From the IMG/VR virus record IMGVR_UViG_2541047945_000003: a stretch of DNA of 10,027 nucleotides; one strand, given 5' to 3'. A model generated the notes under the pieces. It saw only the letters and a list, made by a program, of their open reading frames with translations. It did not search any database and had not been told where the DNA came from. The stretch comes from a virus. Taxonomy: Duplodnaviria; Heunggongvirae; Uroviricota; Caudoviricetes. The position numbers and the translations under genes are program-made. Within the stretch, counting starts at the first letter, position 1. The number at the start of each line of letters is the position of its first letter. Positions 1-10,027 of this stretch are shown here, one piece after another.

Positions 1-573
1 CAGAATATGGCGGCGATGCTGACCGGCAGTGAGCAGAACTGGCGCAGCTTCACCCGTTCCGTGCTGTCCATGATGACAGAAATTCTGCTTAAGCAGGCAA
101 TGGTGGGGATTGTCGGGAGTATCGGCAGCGCCATTGGCGGGGCTGTTGGTGGCGGCGCATCCGCGTCAGGCGGTACAGCCATTCAGGCCGCTGCGGCGAA
201 ATTCCATTTTGCAACCGGAGGATTTACGGGAACCGGCGGCAAATATGAGCCAGCGGGGATTGTTCACCGTGGTGAATTTGTCTTCACAAAGGAGGCAACC
301 AGCCGGATTGGCGTGGGGAATCTTTACCGGCTGATGCGCGGCTATGCCACCGGCGGTTATGTCGGTACACCGGGCAGCATGGCAGACAGCCGGTCGCAGG
401 CGTCCGGGACGTTTGAGCAGAATAACCATGTGGTGATTAACAACGACGGCACGAACGGGCAGATAGGTCCGGCTGCTCTGAAGGCAGTGTATGACATGGC
501 CCGCAAGGGTGCCCGTGATGAAATCCAGGCACAGATGCGCGATGGTGGTCTGTTCTCCGGAGGTGGACGATGA
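1..573 (+). CDS. H: Tail tape measure protein H, C-terminal fragment (5' end lies outside the window)
   Basis: Frame-1 ORF is open from base 1 and stops at TGA 571-573. Gly/Ala-rich translation ending ...RDGGLFSGGGR matches the lambda gpH C-terminus as I recall it. Its stop overlaps the M start (ATGA), the standard lambda H-M junction. Confidence 0.88.
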   Translation, partial: QNMAAMLTGSEQNWRSFTRSVLSMMTEILLKQAMVGIVGSIGSAIGGAVGGGASASGGTAIQAAAAKFHFATGGFTGTGGKYEPAGIVHRGEFVFTKEATSRIGVGNLYRLMRGYATGGYVGTPGSMADSRSQASGTFEQNNHVVINNDGTNGQIGPAALKAVYDMARKGARDEIQAQMRDGGLFSGGGR

Positions 574-899
574 AAACCTTCCGCTGGAAAGTGAAACCCG
601 GGATGGATGTGACATCGGCTCCTTCCGTCAGGGAGGTGCGCTTTGGTGATGGCTATTCCCAGCGTGCGCCTGCCGGGCTGAACGCTGACCTGAAAACGTA
701 CAGCGTGACGCTGTCTGTCTCCCGTGAGGAGGCCACGGCGCTGGAGTCGTTTCTGGCTGAGCACGGGGGCTGGAAGGCCTTTCTGTGGACGCCGCCTTAT
801 GGCTACAGGCAGATAAAGGTGACCTGCGCAAAATGGTCGTCGCAGGTCAGTATGTTGCGTGTTGAGTTCAGCGCAGAGTTTAAACAGGTGGTGAACTGA
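570..899 (+). CDS. M: Minor tail protein M
   Basis: 109-aa ORF (MKTFRWKVKPGMDV...) with the length and sequence of lambda gpM from memory. ATG overlaps the H stop and its own stop overlaps the L start (TGATG at 897-901). Confidence 0.9.
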   Translation: MKTFRWKVKPGMDVTSAPSVREVRFGDGYSQRAPAGLNADLKTYSVTLSVSREEATALESFLAEHGGWKAFLWTPPYGYRQIKVTCAKWSSQVSMLRVEFSAEFKQVVN

Positions 900-1597
900 T
901 GCAGGATATCCGGCAGGAAACACTGAATGAATGCACCCGTGCGGAGCAGTCGGCCAGCGTGGTGCTCTGGGAAATCGATCTGACAGAGGTCGGTGGAGAA
1001 CGTTATTTTTTCTGTAATGAGCAGAACGAAAAAGGTGAGCCGGTCACCTGGCAGGGGCGACAGTATCAGCCGTATCCCATTCAGGGGAGTGGTTTTGAAC
1101 TGAATGGCAAAGGCACCAGTACGCGCCCCACGCTGACGGTTTCTAACCTGTACGGTATGGTCACCGGGATGGCGGAAGATATGCAGAGTCTGGTCGGCGG
1201 AACGGTGGTCCGGCGTAAGGTTTACGCCCGTTTTCTGGATGCGGTGAACTTCGTCAACGGAAACAGTGACGCCGATCCGGAGCAGGAGGTGATCAGCCGC
1301 TGGCGCATCGAGCAGTGCAGCGAACTGAGCGCGGTCAGTGCCTCTTTTGTACTGTCCACGCCGACGGAAACGGACGGCGCTGTTTTTCCGGGACGTATCA
1401 TGCTGGCCAACACCTGCACCTGGACCTATCGCGGCGATGAGTGCGGTTATCACGGTCCGGCAGTCGCGGATGAATATGATCAGCCGACGTCCGATATCAC
1501 GAAGGATAAATGCAGCAAATGCCTGAGCGGTTGTAAGTTCCGCAATAACGTCGGCAACTTTGGCGGCTTCCTTTCCATTAACAAACTTTCGCAGTAA
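899..1597 (+). CDS. L: Minor tail protein L
   Basis: 232-aa ORF (MQDIRQETLNECTRAEQSASVVLWEIDL...) matching lambda gpL in length and sequence from memory. The C-terminal Cys cluster (CSKCLSGC) is consistent with the known metal-binding tail of gpL. Start is coupled to the M stop. Confidence 0.9.
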   Translation: MQDIRQETLNECTRAEQSASVVLWEIDLTEVGGERYFFCNEQNEKGEPVTWQGRQYQPYPIQGSGFELNGKGTSTRPTLTVSNLYGMVTGMAEDMQSLVGGTVVRRKVYARFLDAVNFVNGNSDADPEQEVISRWRIEQCSELSAVSASFVLSTPTETDGAVFPGRIMLANTCTWTYRGDECGYHGPAVADEYDQPTSDITKDKCSKCLSGCKFRNNVGNFGGFLSINKLSQ

Positions 1598-1602
1598 ATA
1601 CC

Positions 1603-2346
1603 ATGACACAGACAGAATCAGCGATTCTGGCGCACGCCCGGCGATGTGCGCCAGCGGAGTCGTGCGGCTTCGTGGTAAGCACGCCGGAGGGGGAAAGATA
1701 TTTCCCCTGCGTGAATATCTCCGGTGAGCCGGAGGCGTATTTCCGTATGTCGCCGGAAGACTGGCTGCAGGCAGAAATGCAGGGTGAGATTATGGCGCTG
1801 GTCCACAGCCACCCCGGAGGTCTGCCCTGGCTGAGTGAGGCCGACCGGCGGCTGCAGGTGCAGAGTGATTTGCCGTGGTGGCTGGTCTGCCGGGGGACGA
1901 TTCATAAGTTCCGCTGTGTGCCGCATCTCACCGGGCGGCGCTTTGAGCACGGGGTGACGGACTGTTACACGCTGTTCCGGGATGCTTATCATCTGGCGGG
2001 GATTGAGATGCCGGATTTTCATCGCGGGGATGACTGGTGGCGTCACGGTCAGAATCTCTATCTGGATAATCTGGAGGCCACAGGGCTGTATCAGGTGCCG
2101 TTGTCATCAGCACAACCGGGCGATGTGCTGCTGTGCTGTTTTGGTTCATCGGTGCCGAATCATGCCGCCATTTACTGTGGTGACAGCGAGCTGCTGCACC
2201 ATATTCCTGAACAACTGAGCAAACGAGAGAGGTACACCGACAAATGGCAGCGACGCACACACTCCCTCTGGCGTCACCGGGAATGGCACGCATCTGCCTT
2301 TACGGGGATTTGCAACGATTTGGCCGCCGCATCGACCTTCGTGTGA
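1603..2346 (+). CDS. K: Tail tip assembly protein K (MPN/JAMM plus NlpC/P60 two-domain protein)
   Basis: 247-aa ORF 6 nt after the L stop. The translation has a JAMM-type motif HSHPGGLPWLSEAD (H-x-H-x7-S-x2-D) and downstream Cys/His residues (DCYTL ... LLHH) consistent with an NlpC/P60 fold. The classical lambda annotation starts K at an internal Met (here ATG 1747, MSPEDW...); I prefer 1603 because a complete MPN domain needs the upstream residues. Confidence 0.85.
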   Translation: MTQTESAILAHARRCAPAESCGFVVSTPEGERYFPCVNISGEPEAYFRMSPEDWLQAEMQGEIMALVHSHPGGLPWLSEADRRLQVQSDLPWWLVCRGTIHKFRCVPHLTGRRFEHGVTDCYTLFRDAYHLAGIEMPDFHRGDDWWRHGQNLYLDNLEATGLYQVPLSSAQPGDVLLCCFGSSVPNHAAIYCGDSELLHHIPEQLSKRERYTDKWQRRTHSLWRHREWHASAFTGICNDLAAASTFV

Positions 2347-2915
2347 AAACGGGGGCTGAAGCCATCCGCGCACTTGCCACACAGCTCCCGGCGTTTCGTC
2401 AGAAACTGAGCGACGGCTGGTATCAGGTACGGATTGCCGGGCGGGACGTCAGCACGTCCGGGTTAACGGCGCAGTTACATGAGACTCTGCCTGACGGCGC
2501 TGTGATTCATATTGTTCCCAGAGTCGCCGGGGCCAAGTCAGGGGGCGTATTCCAGATTGTTCTGGGGGCTGCCGCCATTGCCGGATCATTCTTTACTGCC
2601 GGAGCCACCCTTGCAGCATGGGGGGCAGCCATTGGGGCCGGTGGTATGACCGGTATCCTGTTTTCTCTCGGTGCCAGTATGGTGCTCGGTGGTGTGGCGC
2701 AGATGTTGGCACCGAAAGCCAGGACGCCCACGGCAGCAAGTACAGATAACGGCAAACAGAACACCTATTTCTCCTCACTGGATAACATGGTTGCCCAGGG
2801 CAATGTTCTGCCCGTTCTGTACGGTGAAATGCGCGTGGGGTCGCGGGTGGTCTCTCAGGAGATCAGCACGGCAGACGAAGGGGATGGTGGTCAGGTTGTG
2901 GTGATTGGTCGCTGA
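2244..2915 (+). CDS. I: Tail assembly protein I
   Basis: 223-aa ORF (MAATHTLPLASPGMARICLYGDLQRFGRRIDLRVKTGAEAIRAL...) matching lambda gpI from memory, with a Gly/Ala-rich hydrophobic central segment. It overlaps the 3' end of K by about 100 nt in another frame, as in lambda. Confidence 0.9.
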   Translation: MAATHTLPLASPGMARICLYGDLQRFGRRIDLRVKTGAEAIRALATQLPAFRQKLSDGWYQVRIAGRDVSTSGLTAQLHETLPDGAVIHIVPRVAGAKSGGVFQIVLGAAAIAGSFFTAGATLAAWGAAIGAGGMTGILFSLGASMVLGGVAQMLAPKARTPTAASTDNGKQNTYFSSLDNMVAQGNVLPVLYGEMRVGSRVVSQEISTADEGDGGQVVVIGR

Positions 2916-2932
2916 TGAAAAACGTTTATGTG

Positions 2933-2953
2933 AAACCGCCTCCGGGCGGTTTT
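2933..2953 (+). terminator. Short GC hairpin with a weak T-tract in the I-J intergenic region (possible attenuator or RNA structure)
   Basis: AACCGCC-TCCG-GGCGGTT inverted repeat (7-bp stem, 4-nt loop) followed by TTGTCGTTT. The U-tract is interrupted, so this is weak as an intrinsic terminator. Confidence 0.3.
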
Positions 2954-2974
2954 GTCGTTTATGGAGCGTGAGGA

Positions 2975-5900
2975 ATGGGTAAAGGCAGCAGTAAGGGGCA
3001 TACTCCGCGCGAAGCGAAGGACAACCTGAAGTCCACGCAGTTGCTGAGTGTGATCGATGCCATCAGCGAAGGGCCGGTTGAAGGTCCGGTGGATGGATTA
3101 AAAAGCGTGCTGCTGAACAGTACGCCAGTGCTGGACAGTGAGGGGAATACCAACATCTCCGGCGTCACGGTGGTGTTCCGGGCCGGTGAGCAGGAGCAGA
3201 CACCGCCGGAGGGATTTGAATCCTCCGGCTCCGAGACGGTGCTGGGTACGGAAGTGAAATACGACACGCCGATCACCCGGACCATCACGTCGGCAAACAT
3301 TGACCGACTGCGTTTTACCTTCGGCGTGCAGGCACTGGTGGAAACCACCTCAAAGGGGGACAGGAATCCGTCGGAAGTCCGCCTGCTGGTTCAGATACAG
3401 CGTAATGGTGGCTGGGTGACGGAAAAAGACATCACCATTAAGGGCAAAACCACCTCGCAGTATCTGGCCTCGGTGGTGGTGGGTAACCTGCCGCCGCGCC
3501 CGTTCAGTATCCGGATGCGCAGGATGACGCCGGACAGCACCACAGACCAGCTGCAGAACAAAACGCTCTGGTCGTCATACACCGAAATCATCGATGTGAA
3601 ACAGTGCTACCCGAACACGGCACTGGTCGGCGTGCAGGTGGACTCGGAGCAGTTCGGCAGCCAGCAGGTGAGCCGTAATTATCATCTGCGCGGGCGCATT
3701 CTGCAGGTGCCGTCGAACTATAACCCGCAGACGCGGCAATACAGCGGTATCTGGGACGGAACGTTTAAGCCAGCATACAGCAACAACATGGCCTGGTGTC
3801 TGTGGGATATGCTGACCCATCCGCGCTACGGCATGGGGAAACGTCTTGGTGCGGCGGATGTGGACAAATGGGCGCTGTATGTCATCGGCCAGCATTGCGA
3901 TCAGTCGGTGCCGGACGGTTTTGGCGGCACGGAGCCGCGCATCACCTGTAATGCGTACCTGACCACACAGCGCAAGACGTGGGATGTGCTCAGTGATTTC
4001 TGCTCGGCGATGCGCTGTATGCCGGTATGGAACGGGCAGACGCTGACGTTCGTGCAGGACCGACCGTCGGATAAGGTGTGGACCTATAACCGCAGTAATG
4101 TGGTGATGCCGGATGATGGTGCGCCGTTCCGCTACAGCTTCAGCGCCCTGAAGGACCGCCATAATGCCGTTGAGGTGAACTGGATTGACCCGAATAACGG
4201 CTGGGAGACGGCGACAGAGCTTGTGGAGGACACGCAGGCCATTGCCCGTTACGGTCGTAGCGTCACGAAGATGGATGCTTTTGGCTGTACCAGCCGGGGG
4301 CAGGCACATCGCGCCGGGCTGTGGCTGATTAAAACAGAACTGCTGGAAACGCAGACCGTGGACTTCAGCGTGGGTGCCGAAGGGCTTCGCCATGTACCGG
4401 GCGATGTCATTGAAATCTGCGATGATGACTATGCCGGTATCAGCACCGGCGGGCGCGTGCTGGCGGTAAACAGCCAGACCCGGACGCTGACGCTCGACCG
4501 TGAAATCACGCTGCCATCTTCCGGCACCACGCTGATAAGCCTGGTTGACGGGCAGGGGAGTCCGGTCAGCGTGGAGGTTCAGTCCGTCACCGACGGCGTG
4601 AAGGTAAAAGTGAGCCGTGTTCCTGACGGCGTTGCCGAGTACAGCGTGTGGGGGCTGAAGCTGCCGACGCTGCGCCAGCGCCTGTTCCGCTGTGTGAGTA
4701 TCCGTGAGAACGATGACGGTACGTATGCCATCACTGCCGTGCAGCATGTACCGGAGAAAGAAGCCATCGTGGATAACGGGGCGCACTTTGACGGTGACCA
4801 GAGCGGCACGGTGAATGGTGTCACGCCGCCAGCAGTGCAGCATCTGACCGCAGAAGTCACTGCAGACAGCGGGGAATACCAGGTGCTGGCGCGCTGGGAT
4901 ACGCCGAAGGTGGTGAAGGGGGTGAGCTTTATGCTTCGCCTGACCGTGGCAGCGGATGACGGCAGTGAGCGGCTGGTCAGCACGGCCCGGACGACGGAAA
5001 CCACATACCGCTTCACGCAACTGGCGCTGGGAAACTACAGGCTGACAGTCCGGGCGGCAAATGCCTGGGGGCAGCAGGGCGATCCGGCGTCGGTATCGTT
5101 CCGGATTGCCGCACCGGCAGCGCCATCTCGGATTGAGCTGACGCCGGGCTATTTTCAGATAACCGCCACGCCGCATCTTGCCGTTTATGATCCGACGGTA
5201 CAGTTTGAGTTCTGGTTCTCGGAAAAGCGGATTACCGATATCAGGCAGGTTGAAACCACAGCCCGCTATCTTGGCACGGCGCTGTACTGGATAGCTGCCA
5301 GTATCAATATTAAGCCGGGCCATGATTATTATTTTTACGTTCGCAGTGTGAACACCGTTGGCAAATCGGCATTCGTGGAGGCCGTCGGTCGGGCGAGCGA
5401 TGATGCGGAAGGTTACCTGGATTTTTTCAAAGGCCAGATAACCGAATCCCATCTCGGCAAGGAGCTGCTGGAAAAAGTCGAGCTGACGGAGGATAACGCC
5501 AGCAAACTGGAGGAGTTTTCGAAAGAGTGGAAGGACGCCAACGATAAATGGAATGCCATGTGGGGCGTCAAAATTGAGCAGACCAAAGACGGCAAACATT
5601 ATGTCGCGGGGCTTGGCCTCAGCATGGAGGATACGGAGGAAGGCAAACTGAGCCAGTTCCTGGTTGCCGCTAACCGTATCGCGTTTATTGACCCGGCAAA
5701 CGGGAATGAAACGCCGATGTTTGTGGCGCAGGGCAACCAGATATTCATGAACGAAGTGTTCCTGAAGTATCTGACGGCTCCCACCATTACCAGTGGCGGT
5801 AATCCTCCGGCATTTTCCCTGACACCGGACGGGCGGCTGACGGCGAGAAATGCTGATATCAGCGGTAACGTGAATGCGAACTCCGGGACGCTCAATAATG

Positions 5901-6388
5901 TCACGGTAAATGAAAACTGTACGATTAAGGGCATGCTGGAGGCGAACCAGGTCAGAGGTGACTTCGTTAAAACTGTATCCAAATCATTCCCGAAAAAGGC
6001 TGGTACGTGGGGTAACACGGAAACACCAAACGGGACGGTTACAGTCACCATTTACGATGATCATAACTTTGACCGCCAAATCATTATTCCGCCCATTATT
6101 TTTAACGGTGTGGCGTATGACGATCCGGGGAGCGGTAATAACCCGGGAGGTACGCGATACACGGGTTATGGTTTTGAAGTTCGCAAAAATGGCGTATTAA
6201 TCGCATCCAGAGAAACTAAAGGAGCCATTCCCGGTAGTTACAGTGCGGTTATTGATATGCCGAGTGGTGGTGGTAACGTCACTCTGGAGTTTAAGATTTT
6301 CCAGAAAGGCAATCAGGGCGCAGGTAACATCACAGACTGTACGGTGATTGTGACCAAAAAAGCTGCTTCCGGTATCAGTATCCGTTGA
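2975..6388 (+). CDS. J: Central tail fiber / host specificity protein J, with a divergent C-terminal receptor-binding region
   Basis: 1137-aa ORF preceded by AGGA 1 nt upstream of the ATG. The first ~975 residues ([34 protein letters not shown]...) match lambda gpJ closely from memory. The last ~160 residues (from about [14 protein letters not shown]... to ...[10 protein letters not shown]) do not match my recollection of the lambda J C-terminus. Confidence 0.93.
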
Positions 6389-6408
6389 AATATTTATAAC
6401 CCCAATAC

Positions 6409-6436
6409 GGGCGCCAGCAATGGCGCCTTTTTTATT
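6409..6436 (+). terminator. Rho-independent terminator-like hairpin between J and stf
   Basis: GGCGCC (6410-6415), loop AGCAAT, GGCGCC (6422-6427), followed directly by TTTTTTATTT. It lies 21 nt after the J stop. Confidence 0.6.
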
Positions 6437-6448
6437 TGTGGAGTGAGT

Positions 6449-8803
6449 ATGGCAGTACAGATTTCAGGTGTGCTGAAAGATGGTGCGGGAAAACCAATAC
6501 AGAACTGCACTATTCAACTGAAGGCAAAGCGTAACAGCACCACGGTACTGGTGAACACGGTGGCCTCTGAAAATCCGGATGAAGCCGGGCGTTACAGCAT
6601 GGATGTTGAGTATGGCCAGTACAACGTCACCCTGCTGGTTGAAGGTTTTCCGCCTTCACATGCCGGGACCATCACCGTGTATGAAGATTCTAAGCCGGGG
6701 ACGCTGAATGATTTTCTCGGTGCCATGACGGAAGAGGATGTCATGCCGGAGGCATTACGCCGTTTTGAGGCTATGGTGGAAGAAGCAGCACGTAACGCTG
6801 AAGCTGCCTCTCAGAGCGCAGCGGCGGCAAAGAAATCCGAAACTGCAGCGGCATCATCGAAGAACGCGGCGAAAACCTCAGAAACGAATGCAGCTAACAG
6901 CGCACAGGCGGCAGCGGCCTCGCAGACTGCATCGGCAAATTCCGCGACAGCAGCTAAAAAATCAGAAACCAACGCGAAAAACAGCGAGACAGCAGCAAAG
7001 ACGAGCGAAACCAACGCAAAGTCCAGCCAGACGGCAGCGAAAACCAGCGAAACGAATGCTAAAGCCAGTGAAACTGCGGCAAAAAACAGCCAGGCTGCAG
7101 CAGCTGAAAGCGAGAGCGCAGCAGCCGGTTCTGCGACTTCAGCAGCTGGATCAGCAACTGCTGCGGCTAACAGCCAGAAAGCTGCGAAGACGAGTGAAAC
7201 TAACGCAAAGTCCAGCCAGACGGCAGCGAAGACCAGCGAAACGAATGCCAAAGCCAGCGAAACTGCGGCAAAAAACAGTCAGGATGCAGCGGCCCAAAGC
7301 GAGAGTGCCGCAGCTGGTTCTGCAAGTGCGGCAGCTAATAGCCAAAAAGCTGCAAAAACCAGTGAAACTAACGCAAAGACGAGTGAAACAAAAGCAGCAG
7401 CCAGCGAGATAGAAGCAACGTCAGCCGCAACAAGAGCAGAGAATGCAGCCCGGATTGCAGAAGATGCCGCTGATCCTGCTTCAGTCCCTCCGCTTCCTGA
7501 TATCTGGCTACCCTTGAATGATTCTCTGGAAGCGATAACAGGGTATGCCCCGGGCTATAAAACAATAACCATCGGCAGTGATGAAATAACAATGCCTGTT
7601 AATGGCATATGCCAATTTAGCCGCGCTTCATCAGCAACGTATATTGATAAGTCCGGGCATATTACCGTGGCAGGGAATAACGTTCCTCGTTTTGAAAAAT
7701 ATGGTTTGCTGATAGAGAATCAGCGAACAAACATGTTCGTAAATAGTTTTAATCCTGATGCGTGGAATAAAAGCGGTGGTATATCTGTAACATCATCAAC
7801 AGATGAATTTGAGTTTAAATATGGACGTTTCACAGTAGGAAGTGAGATAGCAGGAACGACAACAGGGAGAAATATATGCACAGTTGCTGGTAATAAAGGC
7901 ATAGATGTGACTGGCGATGATCAGTACAGTAAAGGTCCGTATGTTACCGCGTCGTTCAGGGTAAGAAGTGATCTCAATGTTCGCGCACGTATCCGTTTTG
8001 AACGGTATAACTCGGAAGGATACACTTTCCTTTGTGACGCCTATTTGTCATTACAGACTCATGAACTACAAATTACGGGTGGTAATGCCCAGCTATTAAC
8101 AGCAAACTTTGAAATCGACCCTGGTAGTGGATGGATATATTTTCAGGCAACACTGAAATGTCTGCCAGAATGGGGAATGGTTGGTACGCAGCTGCAAATT
8201 GCAGCCGACAGAGCAGTGGGGGCTTTTGCAACAGGTGACTGGATAGAAGTAACCACCCCGCAATTCGAGTATGGTGCTTGTGCAACTTCCTTTATCATAA
8301 CGACAACAGAGCCAGCGACTCGTGCATCAGATTTATGTAAATTTCCGCTGATGAAAAATATGTATACCATGCCTTTTACGTTCATGGTGGAAGTCCATAA
8401 AAACTGGTTTATTTCTCATAATGCTGCACCGCGTGTCATTGATTCAGAAAATCACCAGTCCGGAGGCCCATTTATTATGGGGTTTGGTTCTTCTGGAACT
8501 ATCAGTCAGGATGGTTATTCGTATTGCGATATAGGCGGGGCTAACCGGCGTGTATATGAGTCATGCGGAGTAAGAGATCTCGTTATGGGATTCAGGGTTA
8601 AGGCTGACGGCATGACATGCTCATTTGCAAATAAGAATATAAGCACTGAAACCAAAACAGTATGGAAATATATTCGTGAAGCAGCCGTGATTCGTATCGG
8701 GGGGCAAACGACGACAGGATTACGACACCTTAATGGTCATATAAAAAACCTCCGTTTCTGGAACAGAGCATTGTCAGATACGCAGCTTAAGGAATACGTA
8801 TAA
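6449..8803 (+). CDS. stf: Side tail fiber protein (Stf-like): lambda-type N-terminal domain, repeat shaft, divergent C-terminal putative receptor-binding domain
   Basis: ATG 6449 with GGAG 5 nt upstream (the ORF track begins at an in-frame GTG at 6443). The N-terminus MAVQISGVLKDGAGKPIQNCTIQLKAKRNSTTVLVNTVASENPDEAGRYSMDVEYGQY... resembles the lambda Stf N-terminal domain from memory. The middle is an Ala/Lys/Ser/Glu/Thr-rich repeat region (KTSETNAK units). The C-terminal ~430 aa is lower-GC and ends ...IKNLRFWNRALSDTQLKEYV, which resembles the terminal strand of LamG/concanavalin-A-like jelly-roll domains. Confidence 0.85.
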   Translation: MAVQISGVLKDGAGKPIQNCTIQLKAKRNSTTVLVNTVASENPDEAGRYSMDVEYGQYNVTLLVEGFPPSHAGTITVYEDSKPGTLNDFLGAMTEEDVMPEALRRFEAMVEEAARNAEAASQSAAAAKKSETAAASSKNAAKTSETNAANSAQAAAASQTASANSATAAKKSETNAKNSETAAKTSETNAKSSQTAAKTSETNAKASETAAKNSQAAAAESESAAAGSATSAAGSATAAANSQKAAKTSETNAKSSQTAAKTSETNAKASETAAKNSQDAAAQSESAAAGSASAAANSQKAAKTSETNAKTSETKAAASEIEATSAATRAENAARIAEDAADPASVPPLPDIWLPLNDSLEAITGYAPGYKTITIGSDEITMPVNGICQFSRASSATYIDKSGHITVAGNNVPRFEKYGLLIENQRTNMFVNSFNPDAWNKSGGISVTSSTDEFEFKYGRFTVGSEIAGTTTGRNICTVAGNKGIDVTGDDQYSKGPYVTASFRVRSDLNVRARIRFERYNSEGYTFLCDAYLSLQTHELQITGGNAQLLTANFEIDPGSGWIYFQATLKCLPEWGMVGTQLQIAADRAVGAFATGDWIEVTTPQFEYGACATSFIITTTEPATRASDLCKFPLMKNMYTMPFTFMVEVHKNWFISHNAAPRVIDSENHQSGGPFIMGFGSSGTISQDGYSYCDIGGANRRVYESCGVRDLVMGFRVKADGMTCSFANKNISTETKTVWKYIREAAVIRIGGQTTTGLRHLNGHIKNLRFWNRALSDTQLKEYV
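6998..7354 (+). repeat. In-frame tandem duplication (~189-bp unit, two near-identical copies) inside the stf shaft, within a longer degenerate ~27-nt periodic region (~6820-7400)
   Basis: Copy A 6998-7186 and copy B 7187-7354 align almost base for base (aagacgag[c/t]gaaac[c/t]aacgcaaagtccagccagacggcagcgaa...ggttctgc). Copy B lacks about 21 nt near its 3' end. Protein level: KTSETNAKSSQTAAKTSETNAKASETAAKNSQ[A/D]AAA[E/Q]SESAAAGSA... occurs twice. Confidence 0.8.
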
Positions 8804-9072
8804 TGCGGGATATAACATTACGATTCGATAACAGAGAACAGTTTAACGCAATTGTATATGACAGTGGCCTGTTCAGTCTTGAAGAAGAAAATGGGGTTCT
8901 TGTTGATGTTATTGGCTGCATTATTGATTACGAGGAGCCAGAAAACGAAAGATGTACAGGCATTGATCGCGGTGGTTTTTTCGTAAACATGAGGATTGTT
9001 GATGGCAGTAAAAACATATCTTCTTTAATGCCTTTCATTACGACAGATCAGCATGTAAGGACATGGGCTTAA
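8803..9072 (+). CDS. Hypothetical protein (89 aa), start overlapping the stf stop; possible non-canonical fiber-associated factor or moron
   Basis: ATG 8803-8805 overlaps the stf TAA (TAATG), with AAGGA 9 nt upstream. AT-rich, acidic translation (MRDITLRFDNREQFNAIVYDSGLFSLEEENGVLVDVIGCIIDYEEPENER...). I recognise no family, and it does not resemble the canonical lambda Tfa as I recall it. Confidence 0.5.
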   Translation: MRDITLRFDNREQFNAIVYDSGLFSLEEENGVLVDVIGCIIDYEEPENERCTGIDRGGFFVNMRIVDGSKNISSLMPFITTDQHVRTWA

Positions 9073-9084
9073 TGGAGTAAGACA

Positions 9085-9810
9085 ATGGTTACAAAAACAG
9101 TAATTCCTGATGACATCAAAACGCTAAAATCCGATGTTAGTAAACTAAAAACTGATCAAGGAAGCTATGCAACAAAATCATATGTAGACAATAAAACAAC
9201 ATGGAATAGTTATTGCAATGTAATCTATGATCAAAAGGCATTGCCGACCACTGGAACTATATTTAGCGGTAAGATTCACTTGTCAAATAAGACTGGTGAA
9301 ACGGAAAACGCTTATAGTGATATATATACCAGAAAAAATATTGATGGTACTAAAGATACAATGACGAGGATCGTCACACATAACGGGACAAAAGGTATCT
9401 TTTGGGACTTTAGTGATCTTTACGGAGGAACTTTAATTTTCCCTGGCACTGCTGGTTATTTGAAAATGGGTAAATGCCTCATGTCCTATGGGGATCGTGT
9501 AGATAATGCCCTGATTAAATTTGATTATACAGACACACTACAGATCAAATATGCTAATCATGGTTCGACCATGACACTAAACACACAGGGAACCGCTCAC
9601 GCTGGCGTTACTGCTAAATTGTGGGGCAATTCTAGCCGTCCGGTTGTTTATGAAGTTGGTGTAGATGGTGGGGCTTTTATATTCTTCGGTCAAAAACAAA
9701 CAGATGACACATATGCATTTGCTGTTAATGGTGCATGTCAAGCGACCGCATTTAACCAGATAGACTGGCCCCCTGAATCACCAGACAACCAATATCACTT
9801 ATTTAAGTGA
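9085..9810 (+). CDS. Hypothetical protein (241 aa as read), 3' end fused to or truncated by IS2; native sequence ends at about codon 225
   Basis: ATG 9085 with GGAG 7 nt upstream. AT-rich ORF with an N-terminus ([31 protein letters not shown]) reminiscent of fibre-type proteins, then a Gly/Thr/Tyr-rich region. From nt 9761 the frame continues through the IS2 terminal repeat ([16 protein letters not shown]) to TGA 9808-9810, so the C-terminus is IS-derived. Confidence 0.55.
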
Positions 9811-9811
9811 T
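9794..9811. promoter_or_regulatory. Perfect palindrome in the IS2 terminal region upstream of insC (candidate OrfA operator / promoter element)
   Basis: ATCACTTA-TT-TAAGTGAT is a perfect 8-bp inverted repeat with a 2-bp spacer, about 40 nt upstream of the insC ATG. The IS2 orfA-proximal end is known to carry the orfA promoter and repressor binding; the exact site assignment is my inference. Confidence 0.35.
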
Positions 9812-9851
9812 AGTCTTAATACTAGTTTTTAGGCTAGTCATTGGAGAGCAG

Positions 9852-10027
9852 ATGATTGATGTCTTAGGACCGGAGAAACGCAGACGGCGTACCACACAGG
9901 AAAAGATCGCAATTGTTCAGCAGAGCTTTGAACCAGGGATGACGGTCTCCCTCGTTGCCCGGCAACATGGTGTAGCAGCCAGCCAGTTATTTCTCTGGCG
10001 TAAGCAATACCAGGAAGGAAGTCTTAC
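9852..10027 (+). CDS. insC: IS2 transposase OrfA (InsC), N-terminal 58 codons; 3' end outside the window
   Basis: Translation [58 protein letters not shown] matches IS2 InsC from memory, including a helix-turn-helix-like segment. No stop codon before the window ends. Confidence 0.9.

Follow-up and report, generated by a model that had tools for sequence, protein, structure and literature searches.

The side tail fibre (Stf) of phage lambda (Ur-lambda) is encoded downstream of the central fibre gene J. It has an N-terminal anchor and an Ala/Ser-rich repeat shaft, and its tip needs a Tfa protein of the Caudo_TAP type. A stf gene that shares this position, anchor and kind of shaft lies on a stretch of 10,027 nucleotides from an IMG/VR virus record (IMGVR_UViG_2541047945_000003), hereafter called the window. 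Instead of tfa, it is followed by an unrelated open reading frame (ORF) of 89 amino acids (aa). A described counterpart is Stf of phage 21 (CPT_21_22), which is collinear over the full length (46% identity over aa 3–786) and has the same three-part architecture. A homologous overlapping ORF of 92 aa follows stf in phage 21 as well. However, phage 21 possesses a different tip allele, and its stf locus continues with a small membrane protein and sitABCD cargo, not with a distal fibre gene.

Fibres composed of two proteins have also been described. Branched lateral fibres are established for LtfA and LtfB of phage DT57C (PMC4728585, PMC10713586). In DT57C and DT571/2, the tail-anchored proximal fibre carries a second fibre via the conserved N-terminus of the latter, and LtfA and LtfB can both contribute specificity. 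The locus presented here resembles this concept, and a similar arrangement is found in the Tequintavirus IrisVonRoten of the BASEL collection. Its gp22 is a proximal fibre with a C-terminal "galectin-like domain", to which gp24 attaches according to an AlphaFold-Multimer prediction (Humolli et al., PMC11990801). IrisVonRoten gp22 is 45% identical to the Stf of the window over aa 114–786, gp23 belongs to the family of the 89-aa ORF, and gp24 shares 71% identity over its first 17 residues with the distal fibre encoded behind this Stf. The two systems differ in the anchor, which is of the T5 type in IrisVonRoten and of the lambda type here, and in the distal fibre, since gp24 is a T-shaped protein of 574 aa with two receptor-binding domains, whereas the distal fibre of the present system has 346 aa.

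With a probability of about 75%, we read the gene as encoding the side tail fibre of a lambda-like prophage that is assembled from exchangeable modules and equipped with a lectin-like, glycan-binding tip, a partner ORF and an optional distal fibre. The gene is an unremarkable member of a large known family, has already been deposited and annotated, and does not represent a new kind of system.

Modular architecture of the fibre

A sequence-only reading of the window had described the 784-aa product as a mosaic side tail fibre, and each of the elements it named was found where it had been placed. The supposed likeness of the first ~100 residues to lambda Stf is confirmed by PF08400, which matches aa 3–133 (numbered from an alternative GTG start) with 227 bits against a cut-off of 26.6 bits (E 6.1e-68). 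In addition, the first 94 aa match the solved N-terminal chain of lambda Stf (PDB 9e7m_Ta, E 2.5e-49). As this homology to a solved structure shows, the N-terminal ~95–130 residues fix the presumably trimeric fibre to the tail tip in the manner of lambda Stf.

The anchor is followed by the repeat shaft that the earlier reading had proposed. Tandem repeats with periods of 21, 42 and 189 nucleotides extend over positions 6946–7396, and a register of 7/14 residues with the heptad SxT(N/A)AK(x) is recognisable by eye. These ~240 residues of heptad repeats would form a shaft, presumably a trimeric coiled coil. The shaft is weakly similar to the repeat region of DT57C LtfA (PDB 8hqz_d). An LtfA-type protein was considered as a candidate and rejected, as the LtfA chain matches the repeat shaft alone. 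Beyond the repeats, no sequence match between the two proteins was found, and the C-terminus of LtfA is of the intramolecular-chaperone type, in contrast to the ConA-like module found here.

The C-terminal part had been judged unrelated to lambda Stf and lower in G+C content, and both statements hold. When the protein is compared with lambda stf/tfa DNA by tblastn, aa 1–274 alone align (58% identity), a stretch that stops within the shaft, and nothing is matched beyond them; homology to lambda Stf is thus not collinear along the whole protein. The G+C content falls from 0.547 in the shaft to 0.435 in the last 447 codons, which comprise the C-terminal module. It is lower still in the two genes after stf (0.38–0.39) and amounts to 0.57–0.58 in the remaining tail genes.

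The nucleotide sequence reveals where the modules are joined. The lambdoid phages ev207, Tritos and HannyBb are ~95% identical over nucleotides 1–894 of stf only, and lambda is ~91% identical over nucleotides 1–473 only. Because identity with these phages ends there, the module junctions are placed inside the repeat shaft.

Fold of the tip module and its presumed ligand

The last ~435 residues are predicted to form a conserved hinge and two tandem ConA-like beta-sandwiches. The first sandwich is recognised by the NCBIfam model NF048003 ("phage head spike fiber domain"), which covers aa 423–628 with its profile positions 1–181 of 182 and scores 48.2 bits against a curated cut-off of 36 (E 1.7e-12). 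The second corresponds to the supposed LamG/ConA-like last strand of the sequence-only reading, which is supported at a sub-threshold level. Over the last 48 residues of the protein (module residues 396–443), Laminin_G_3 (PF13385) reaches E 5e-4 and 20.6 bits, below its gathering score of 27.6 bits. This signal appeared once the module and its relatives were scanned separately; in a direct Pfam scan of the full-length Stf, the C-terminal half remained without a match at E ≤ 0.1. Among the 47 diverse relatives that make up the family alignment of the tip, 31 match PF13385 at E ≤ 0.01, the best of them at 2e-10.

The same alignment served as input for a confident AlphaFold2 monomer model of the module. 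The model is all-beta and has a predicted local distance difference test score (pLDDT) of 89.2 and a predicted template modelling score (pTM) of 0.87, the hinge region being lower in pLDDT (55–91). It shows the beta-sandwich (jelly-roll) fold of the ConA-like/LamG superfamily, so that the lectin-like fold anticipated from the sequence is found in the predicted structure as well. Foldseek aligns the whole model with tandem galectins, among which is the head of the porcine adenovirus 4 fibre (2wsu); this indicates two successive lectin-type sandwiches. The adenovirus protein is likewise a viral fibre that ends in two tandem lectin-type beta-sandwiches. However, it belongs to a eukaryotic virus, and the resemblance is an analogy at the level of the fold only, with ~10% identity and a low TM-score.

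Conservation is unevenly distributed over the module. By column entropy, the hinge and the frame (PLPDIWLP..., PRFE..GLLIE..RTN and the final LamG-like strand) are conserved, while both sandwich bodies are variable, which is the pattern expected of a receptor-contact domain. Within the module, nucleotide-level resemblance to phage 21 is confined to the hinge and the N-terminal strands (blastn, 74% over positions 7483–7575).

These observations suggest that the receptor may be a carbohydrate. The tandem sandwiches would most likely bind a surface glycan such as O-antigen, the core of lipopolysaccharide (LPS) or another polysaccharide. Such binding may provide a reversible primary adsorption before J engages the terminal receptor. 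The head spike and tail fibres of the gene transfer agent RcGTA reportedly bind capsular polysaccharide (PMC10218006). The link from NF048003 to the RcGTA protein is made by the name of the model, the likeness is a distant one that concerns tip domain 1, and the RcGTA fibre sits on a capsid spike, whereas the present fibre belongs to a tail.

Several points weigh against this reading. Binding or adsorption data were found neither for this allele nor for any other member of the tip-module family, and the Laminin_G_3 match is sub-threshold. The tip model is a monomer; the arrangement of the head oligomer and the docking site lie outside it. Lambda Stf has been reported to bind the protein OmpC, and a lectin-like fold is therefore no proof of a glycan receptor. 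The small ORF behind stf has no recognisable chaperone fold. Finally, the fibre belongs to a prophage peppered with insertion sequences (IS) and may never be expressed in a virion.

Exchange of the tip module among phages

The proposed module exchange is backed by the breakdown of collinearity with lambda at about aa 274 and by the occurrence of the tip behind at least four unrelated N-terminal anchors. At 33–54% identity, the tip module is present in 218 phage records. These records include lambdoid phages (phage 21 among others), T5-like phages, Drexlerviridae, Dhillonvirus, Nonagvirus (JenP1 and related phages of ~60 kb) and Vequintavirus, and it also occurs behind P2-type (PF12571 and PF03406) and Tail_spike_N anchors. 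Judged from these sequence comparisons, the module exchange is real, and the architecture is common and already catalogued. The interpretation given earlier is thus supported, but the gene itself is already known: PHROG 1419 matches end to end (profile positions 1–793 against aa 3–786, 1268 bits), in line with the collinearity with phage 21 Stf.

The partner ORF

No Caudo_TAP-type Tfa is encoded directly after stf. An overlapping ORF of ~90 aa follows the tip module at 77 of 78 loci instead, and its family was checked by profile hidden Markov models (HMMs) in seven lineages. Neither this ORF nor the second fibre gene downstream was seen in the sequence-only reading. The 89-aa ORF of the window has no match in Pfam or NCBIfam and no similarity to lambda tfa DNA. 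Detection of its relatives depends on the method. A word-indexed homologue search with the ORF alone yielded four fragments, and a profile of four family members was required; similarly, tblastn against the phage 21 locus found no homologue, but blastp and a profile HMM did.

An assembly role is suggested by the near-perfect linkage of the ~90-aa gene to the tip module. The gene most likely aids the folding or assembly of the tip in place of the Tfa chaperone, and we propose that its product serves as an assembly factor or adaptor specific to this module.

In one source, a fragment of 64 aa with 68% identity to the 89-aa ORF carries the name [quoted passage not shown]. This name looks like a legacy misannotation.

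The distal fibre gene and its disruption

The third gene of the locus encodes a second, distal fibre. It is truncated in the window, where its product is 100% identical to that of Escherichia phage PhiR11_1 over aa 1–225. The PhiR11_1 gene is intact, and its product of 346 aa contains TSDRDLKDNI... at the C-terminus. We take this sequence to be typical of intramolecular-chaperone fibres. The first ~16 residues of the distal fibre are common to JenP1, IrisVonRoten gp24, a P2-like prophage and phage tunus, whereas the remainder of these proteins differs; the motif M[VA]T[KV]T[VIT]IP.DI..LK is found in five lineages. A downstream fibre gene with an N-terminus that is conserved among otherwise differing distal fibres is the mark of two-part or branched fibres. 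Together, the partner ORF and the downstream fibre gene suggest a two-part fibre. In some genomes, including PhiR11_1, this third gene would supply a short distal fibre whose conserved N-terminal peptide probably docks on Stf, yielding a two-part or branched structure.

A distal fibre of this kind was found at 23 of 75 evaluable IMG/VR loci, and none is present in phage 21 or phage rolling. In most cases, the fibre therefore ends with the lectin-like head, and the distal fibre is an optional add-on. Near-identical copies of the Stf tip (98–100%) in IMG/VR loci are followed by at least two distal alleles of 346 aa and 227 aa. Swaps of the distal part thus take place independently of the proximal fibre.

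At window positions 9121–9683, the distal fibre gene is 84.5% identical at the nucleotide level to that of the virulent Nonagvirus JenP1 (positions 4037–4599 of the locus extract), although divergence is much greater in the adjacent genes. A fairly recent exchange between temperate and virulent phages is indicated by this contrast.

In the window, the insertion sequence IS2 has destroyed the distal gene. The window departs from PhiR11_1 exactly at position 9761, and a 5-bp target duplication (CCAGA at 9756–9760) was read in NZ_CP091756. The element cuts the gene after codon 225, immediately ahead of the chaperone-type C-terminus.

A bolder and decidedly tentative proposal, possible rather than probable, goes beyond this locus. 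The tip module, the ~90-aa gene and the ~16-residue N-terminal peptide of the distal fibre may constitute a portable fibre-extension cassette that is spread over at least five to seven lineages of temperate and virulent phages. The ~90-aa protein (PHROG 1361, with no known fold relative) would then represent a novel type of fibre chaperone or adaptor. If true, the cassette would allow any tail anchor to carry a lectin head and to accept interchangeable distal fibres.

Alternative interpretations

Four other explanations were weighed, each of which is less likely than a modular fibre with a glycan-binding tip. According to the first, the ConA-like module mainly serves as a structural node for branching that ends the proximal fibre and holds the distal fibre; the latter would be the real receptor binder, and the module would have no receptor-binding role of its own. 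A distal gene with a docking-type N-terminal peptide does follow the cassette in PhiR11_1, JenP1, IrisVonRoten, the P2-like prophage and tunus. In the P2-like prophage, the module replaces the usual tip of gpH, and a separate fibre and a Caudo_TAP chaperone come next. For DT57C, LtfA can on some hosts act solely as the attachment site for LtfB (PMC4728585). We nevertheless consider this explanation unlikely, because the module forms the end of the fibre in most genomes, as the 23 of 75 loci and the phages 21 and rolling illustrate, and because its highly variable sandwich bodies are expected of a receptor-contact surface rather than of a docking platform.

It is quite unlikely that the tip binds an outer-membrane protein instead of a glycan, even though this has been reported for lambda Stf and OmpC. 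The nearest relatives of the tip by fold and profile are carbohydrate binders, and in the phage groups in which the module occurs, lateral fibres are generally tied to the recognition of O-antigen (PMC8594841).

The gene could also be an inert relic of a decaying prophage, which appears very unlikely. This assumption draws on the IS2 copy within the next fibre gene, on the IS66-family element just past it, and on the Prokaryotic Genome Annotation Pipeline (PGAP), which calls the stf locus a pseudogene fragment and a 403-aa coding sequence. The ORF, however, is intact over 784 codons in the window, and a single base separates it from its counterpart in PhiR11_1, whose genome has been deposited as that of a phage with K-12 MG1655 as the recorded host. 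PGAP seems to have split the gene on account of its low-complexity shaft, since the genome concerned and the window are identical except for one base, which lies outside stf.

That the tip acts as a GH16-type glycanase or a polysaccharide lyase within the ConA-like superfamily and degrades O-antigen or capsule, making Stf a depolymerase fibre, was considered and set aside as hardly credible, since Pfam and NCBIfam gave no enzyme family match for Stf, the module or its relatives, no beta-helix or other catalytic domain of a tailspike or depolymerase was found, and the best fold matches are non-catalytic modules.

Genomic context and occurrence

The window represents the distal tail module of a lambda-like prophage. 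It starts with the end of H, which is followed by M, L, K, I, J and stf, the 89-aa ORF and a truncated further ORF. The order H-M-L-K-I-J-stf is that of the ORF list and of the PhiR11_1 annotation. The positions of the features are listed in Table 1.

Table 1. Features of the fibre locus (positions in the window)
Feature	Position	Strand	Basis and remarks
Terminator-like hairpin and T-run	6409..6437	+	Hairpin 6409–6428, 8 pairs (6 GC), between the J stop (6388) and stf; scan and reading of the sequence
stf, side tail fibre gene	6449..8803	+	784 aa from ATG 6449; ORF list, PhiR11_1 annotation, PHROG 1419
Lambda-type N-terminal anchor, attaches to the tail tip	6449..6841 (residues 1–131)	+	PF08400; 9e7m_Ta
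Heptad-periodic Ala/Ser/Thr/Lys/Glu-rich shaft with 63-aa higher-order duplication	6842..7477	+	Tandem repeats, 7/14-residue register
Conserved hinge (PPLPDIWLPLNDSL...) and N-terminal strands of the tip module	7487..7708	+	Lowest column entropy in the family alignment
Tip domain 1, predicted beta-sandwich of "phage head spike fiber" type (ConA-like)	7709..8326	+	NF048003
Tip domain 2, predicted Laminin_G_3-like beta-sandwich, end ...IKNLRFWNRALSDTQLKEYV	8327..8800	+	PF13385 sub-threshold; Foldseek
89-aa partner ORF overlapping the stf stop (ATGA)	8803..9072	+	PHROG 1361, function unknown
Second (distal) fibre gene, 5' 225 codons	9085..9760	+	PHROG 4563 "tail fiber", profile positions 1–226 of 346; truncated here
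IS2 copy, left end, within the distal fibre gene	9761..10027	+	99.6% identical to the IS2 annotated in PhiR11_1

In the ORF list, stf is an uninterrupted frame on the plus strand that ends at 8803 and starts at 6443 (GTG) or 6449 (ATG). The ATG is the likely start and use of the GTG is unlikely, because a GGAG at 6440–6443 precedes the ATG just past the terminator-like hairpin and the same start is annotated in PhiR11_1. In phage 21, a terminator is annotated at the position of this hairpin. Between J and stf (positions 6389–6448), there is no lom gene, just the hairpin and the ribosome-binding site. Phage 21 is arranged in the same way, in contrast to lambda, in which lom lies between the two genes.

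Over bases 1–9760, the window shares 99.9% identity with Escherichia phage PhiR11_1 (PV340547.1), in which the gene that differs from stf by one base is annotated as "side tail fiber protein". The chromosome of E. coli LC-1302-2020 matches the whole window with one mismatch, outside stf. Of 5426 complete E. coli genomes, 141 (~2.6%) contain alleles of the C-terminal part of stf with at least 95% nucleotide identity, and this tip allele is thus common among E. coli prophages. The worth of the finding is practical, not conceptual. As a compact unit, the tip module and its ~90-aa partner work in nature on lambda-, P2- and T5-type anchors, which makes the unit a candidate part for retargeting lambda-based delivery particles.

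In NZ_CP091756.1, positions 6750–9104 of the locus extract correspond to 6449–8803 of the window. PGAP splits the intact 784-codon gene there into a pseudogene N-terminal fragment and a separate "phage head spike fiber domain-containing protein" of 403 aa. Many of the database relatives of stf are marked "partial", and their lengths vary widely. The low-complexity repeat shaft seems to break annotations and assemblies.

Just past the window, the 3' remnant of the distal fibre gene gives way to an IS66-family element (tnpA, tnpB and ISEc23 transposase) at positions 11828–14244 of the same locus extract. IS insertions have a hotspot at the right end of the prophage.

Up to about residue 900, the central fibre J shares 95–100% identity with its lambda counterpart. 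In its last ~137 residues (~1001–1137, window positions ~5975–6388), which correspond to the receptor-binding domain PF12421, identity drops to 34–38%, and the G+C content falls there as well. J probably has a specificity other than LamB, which would make it a second module swap within the window.

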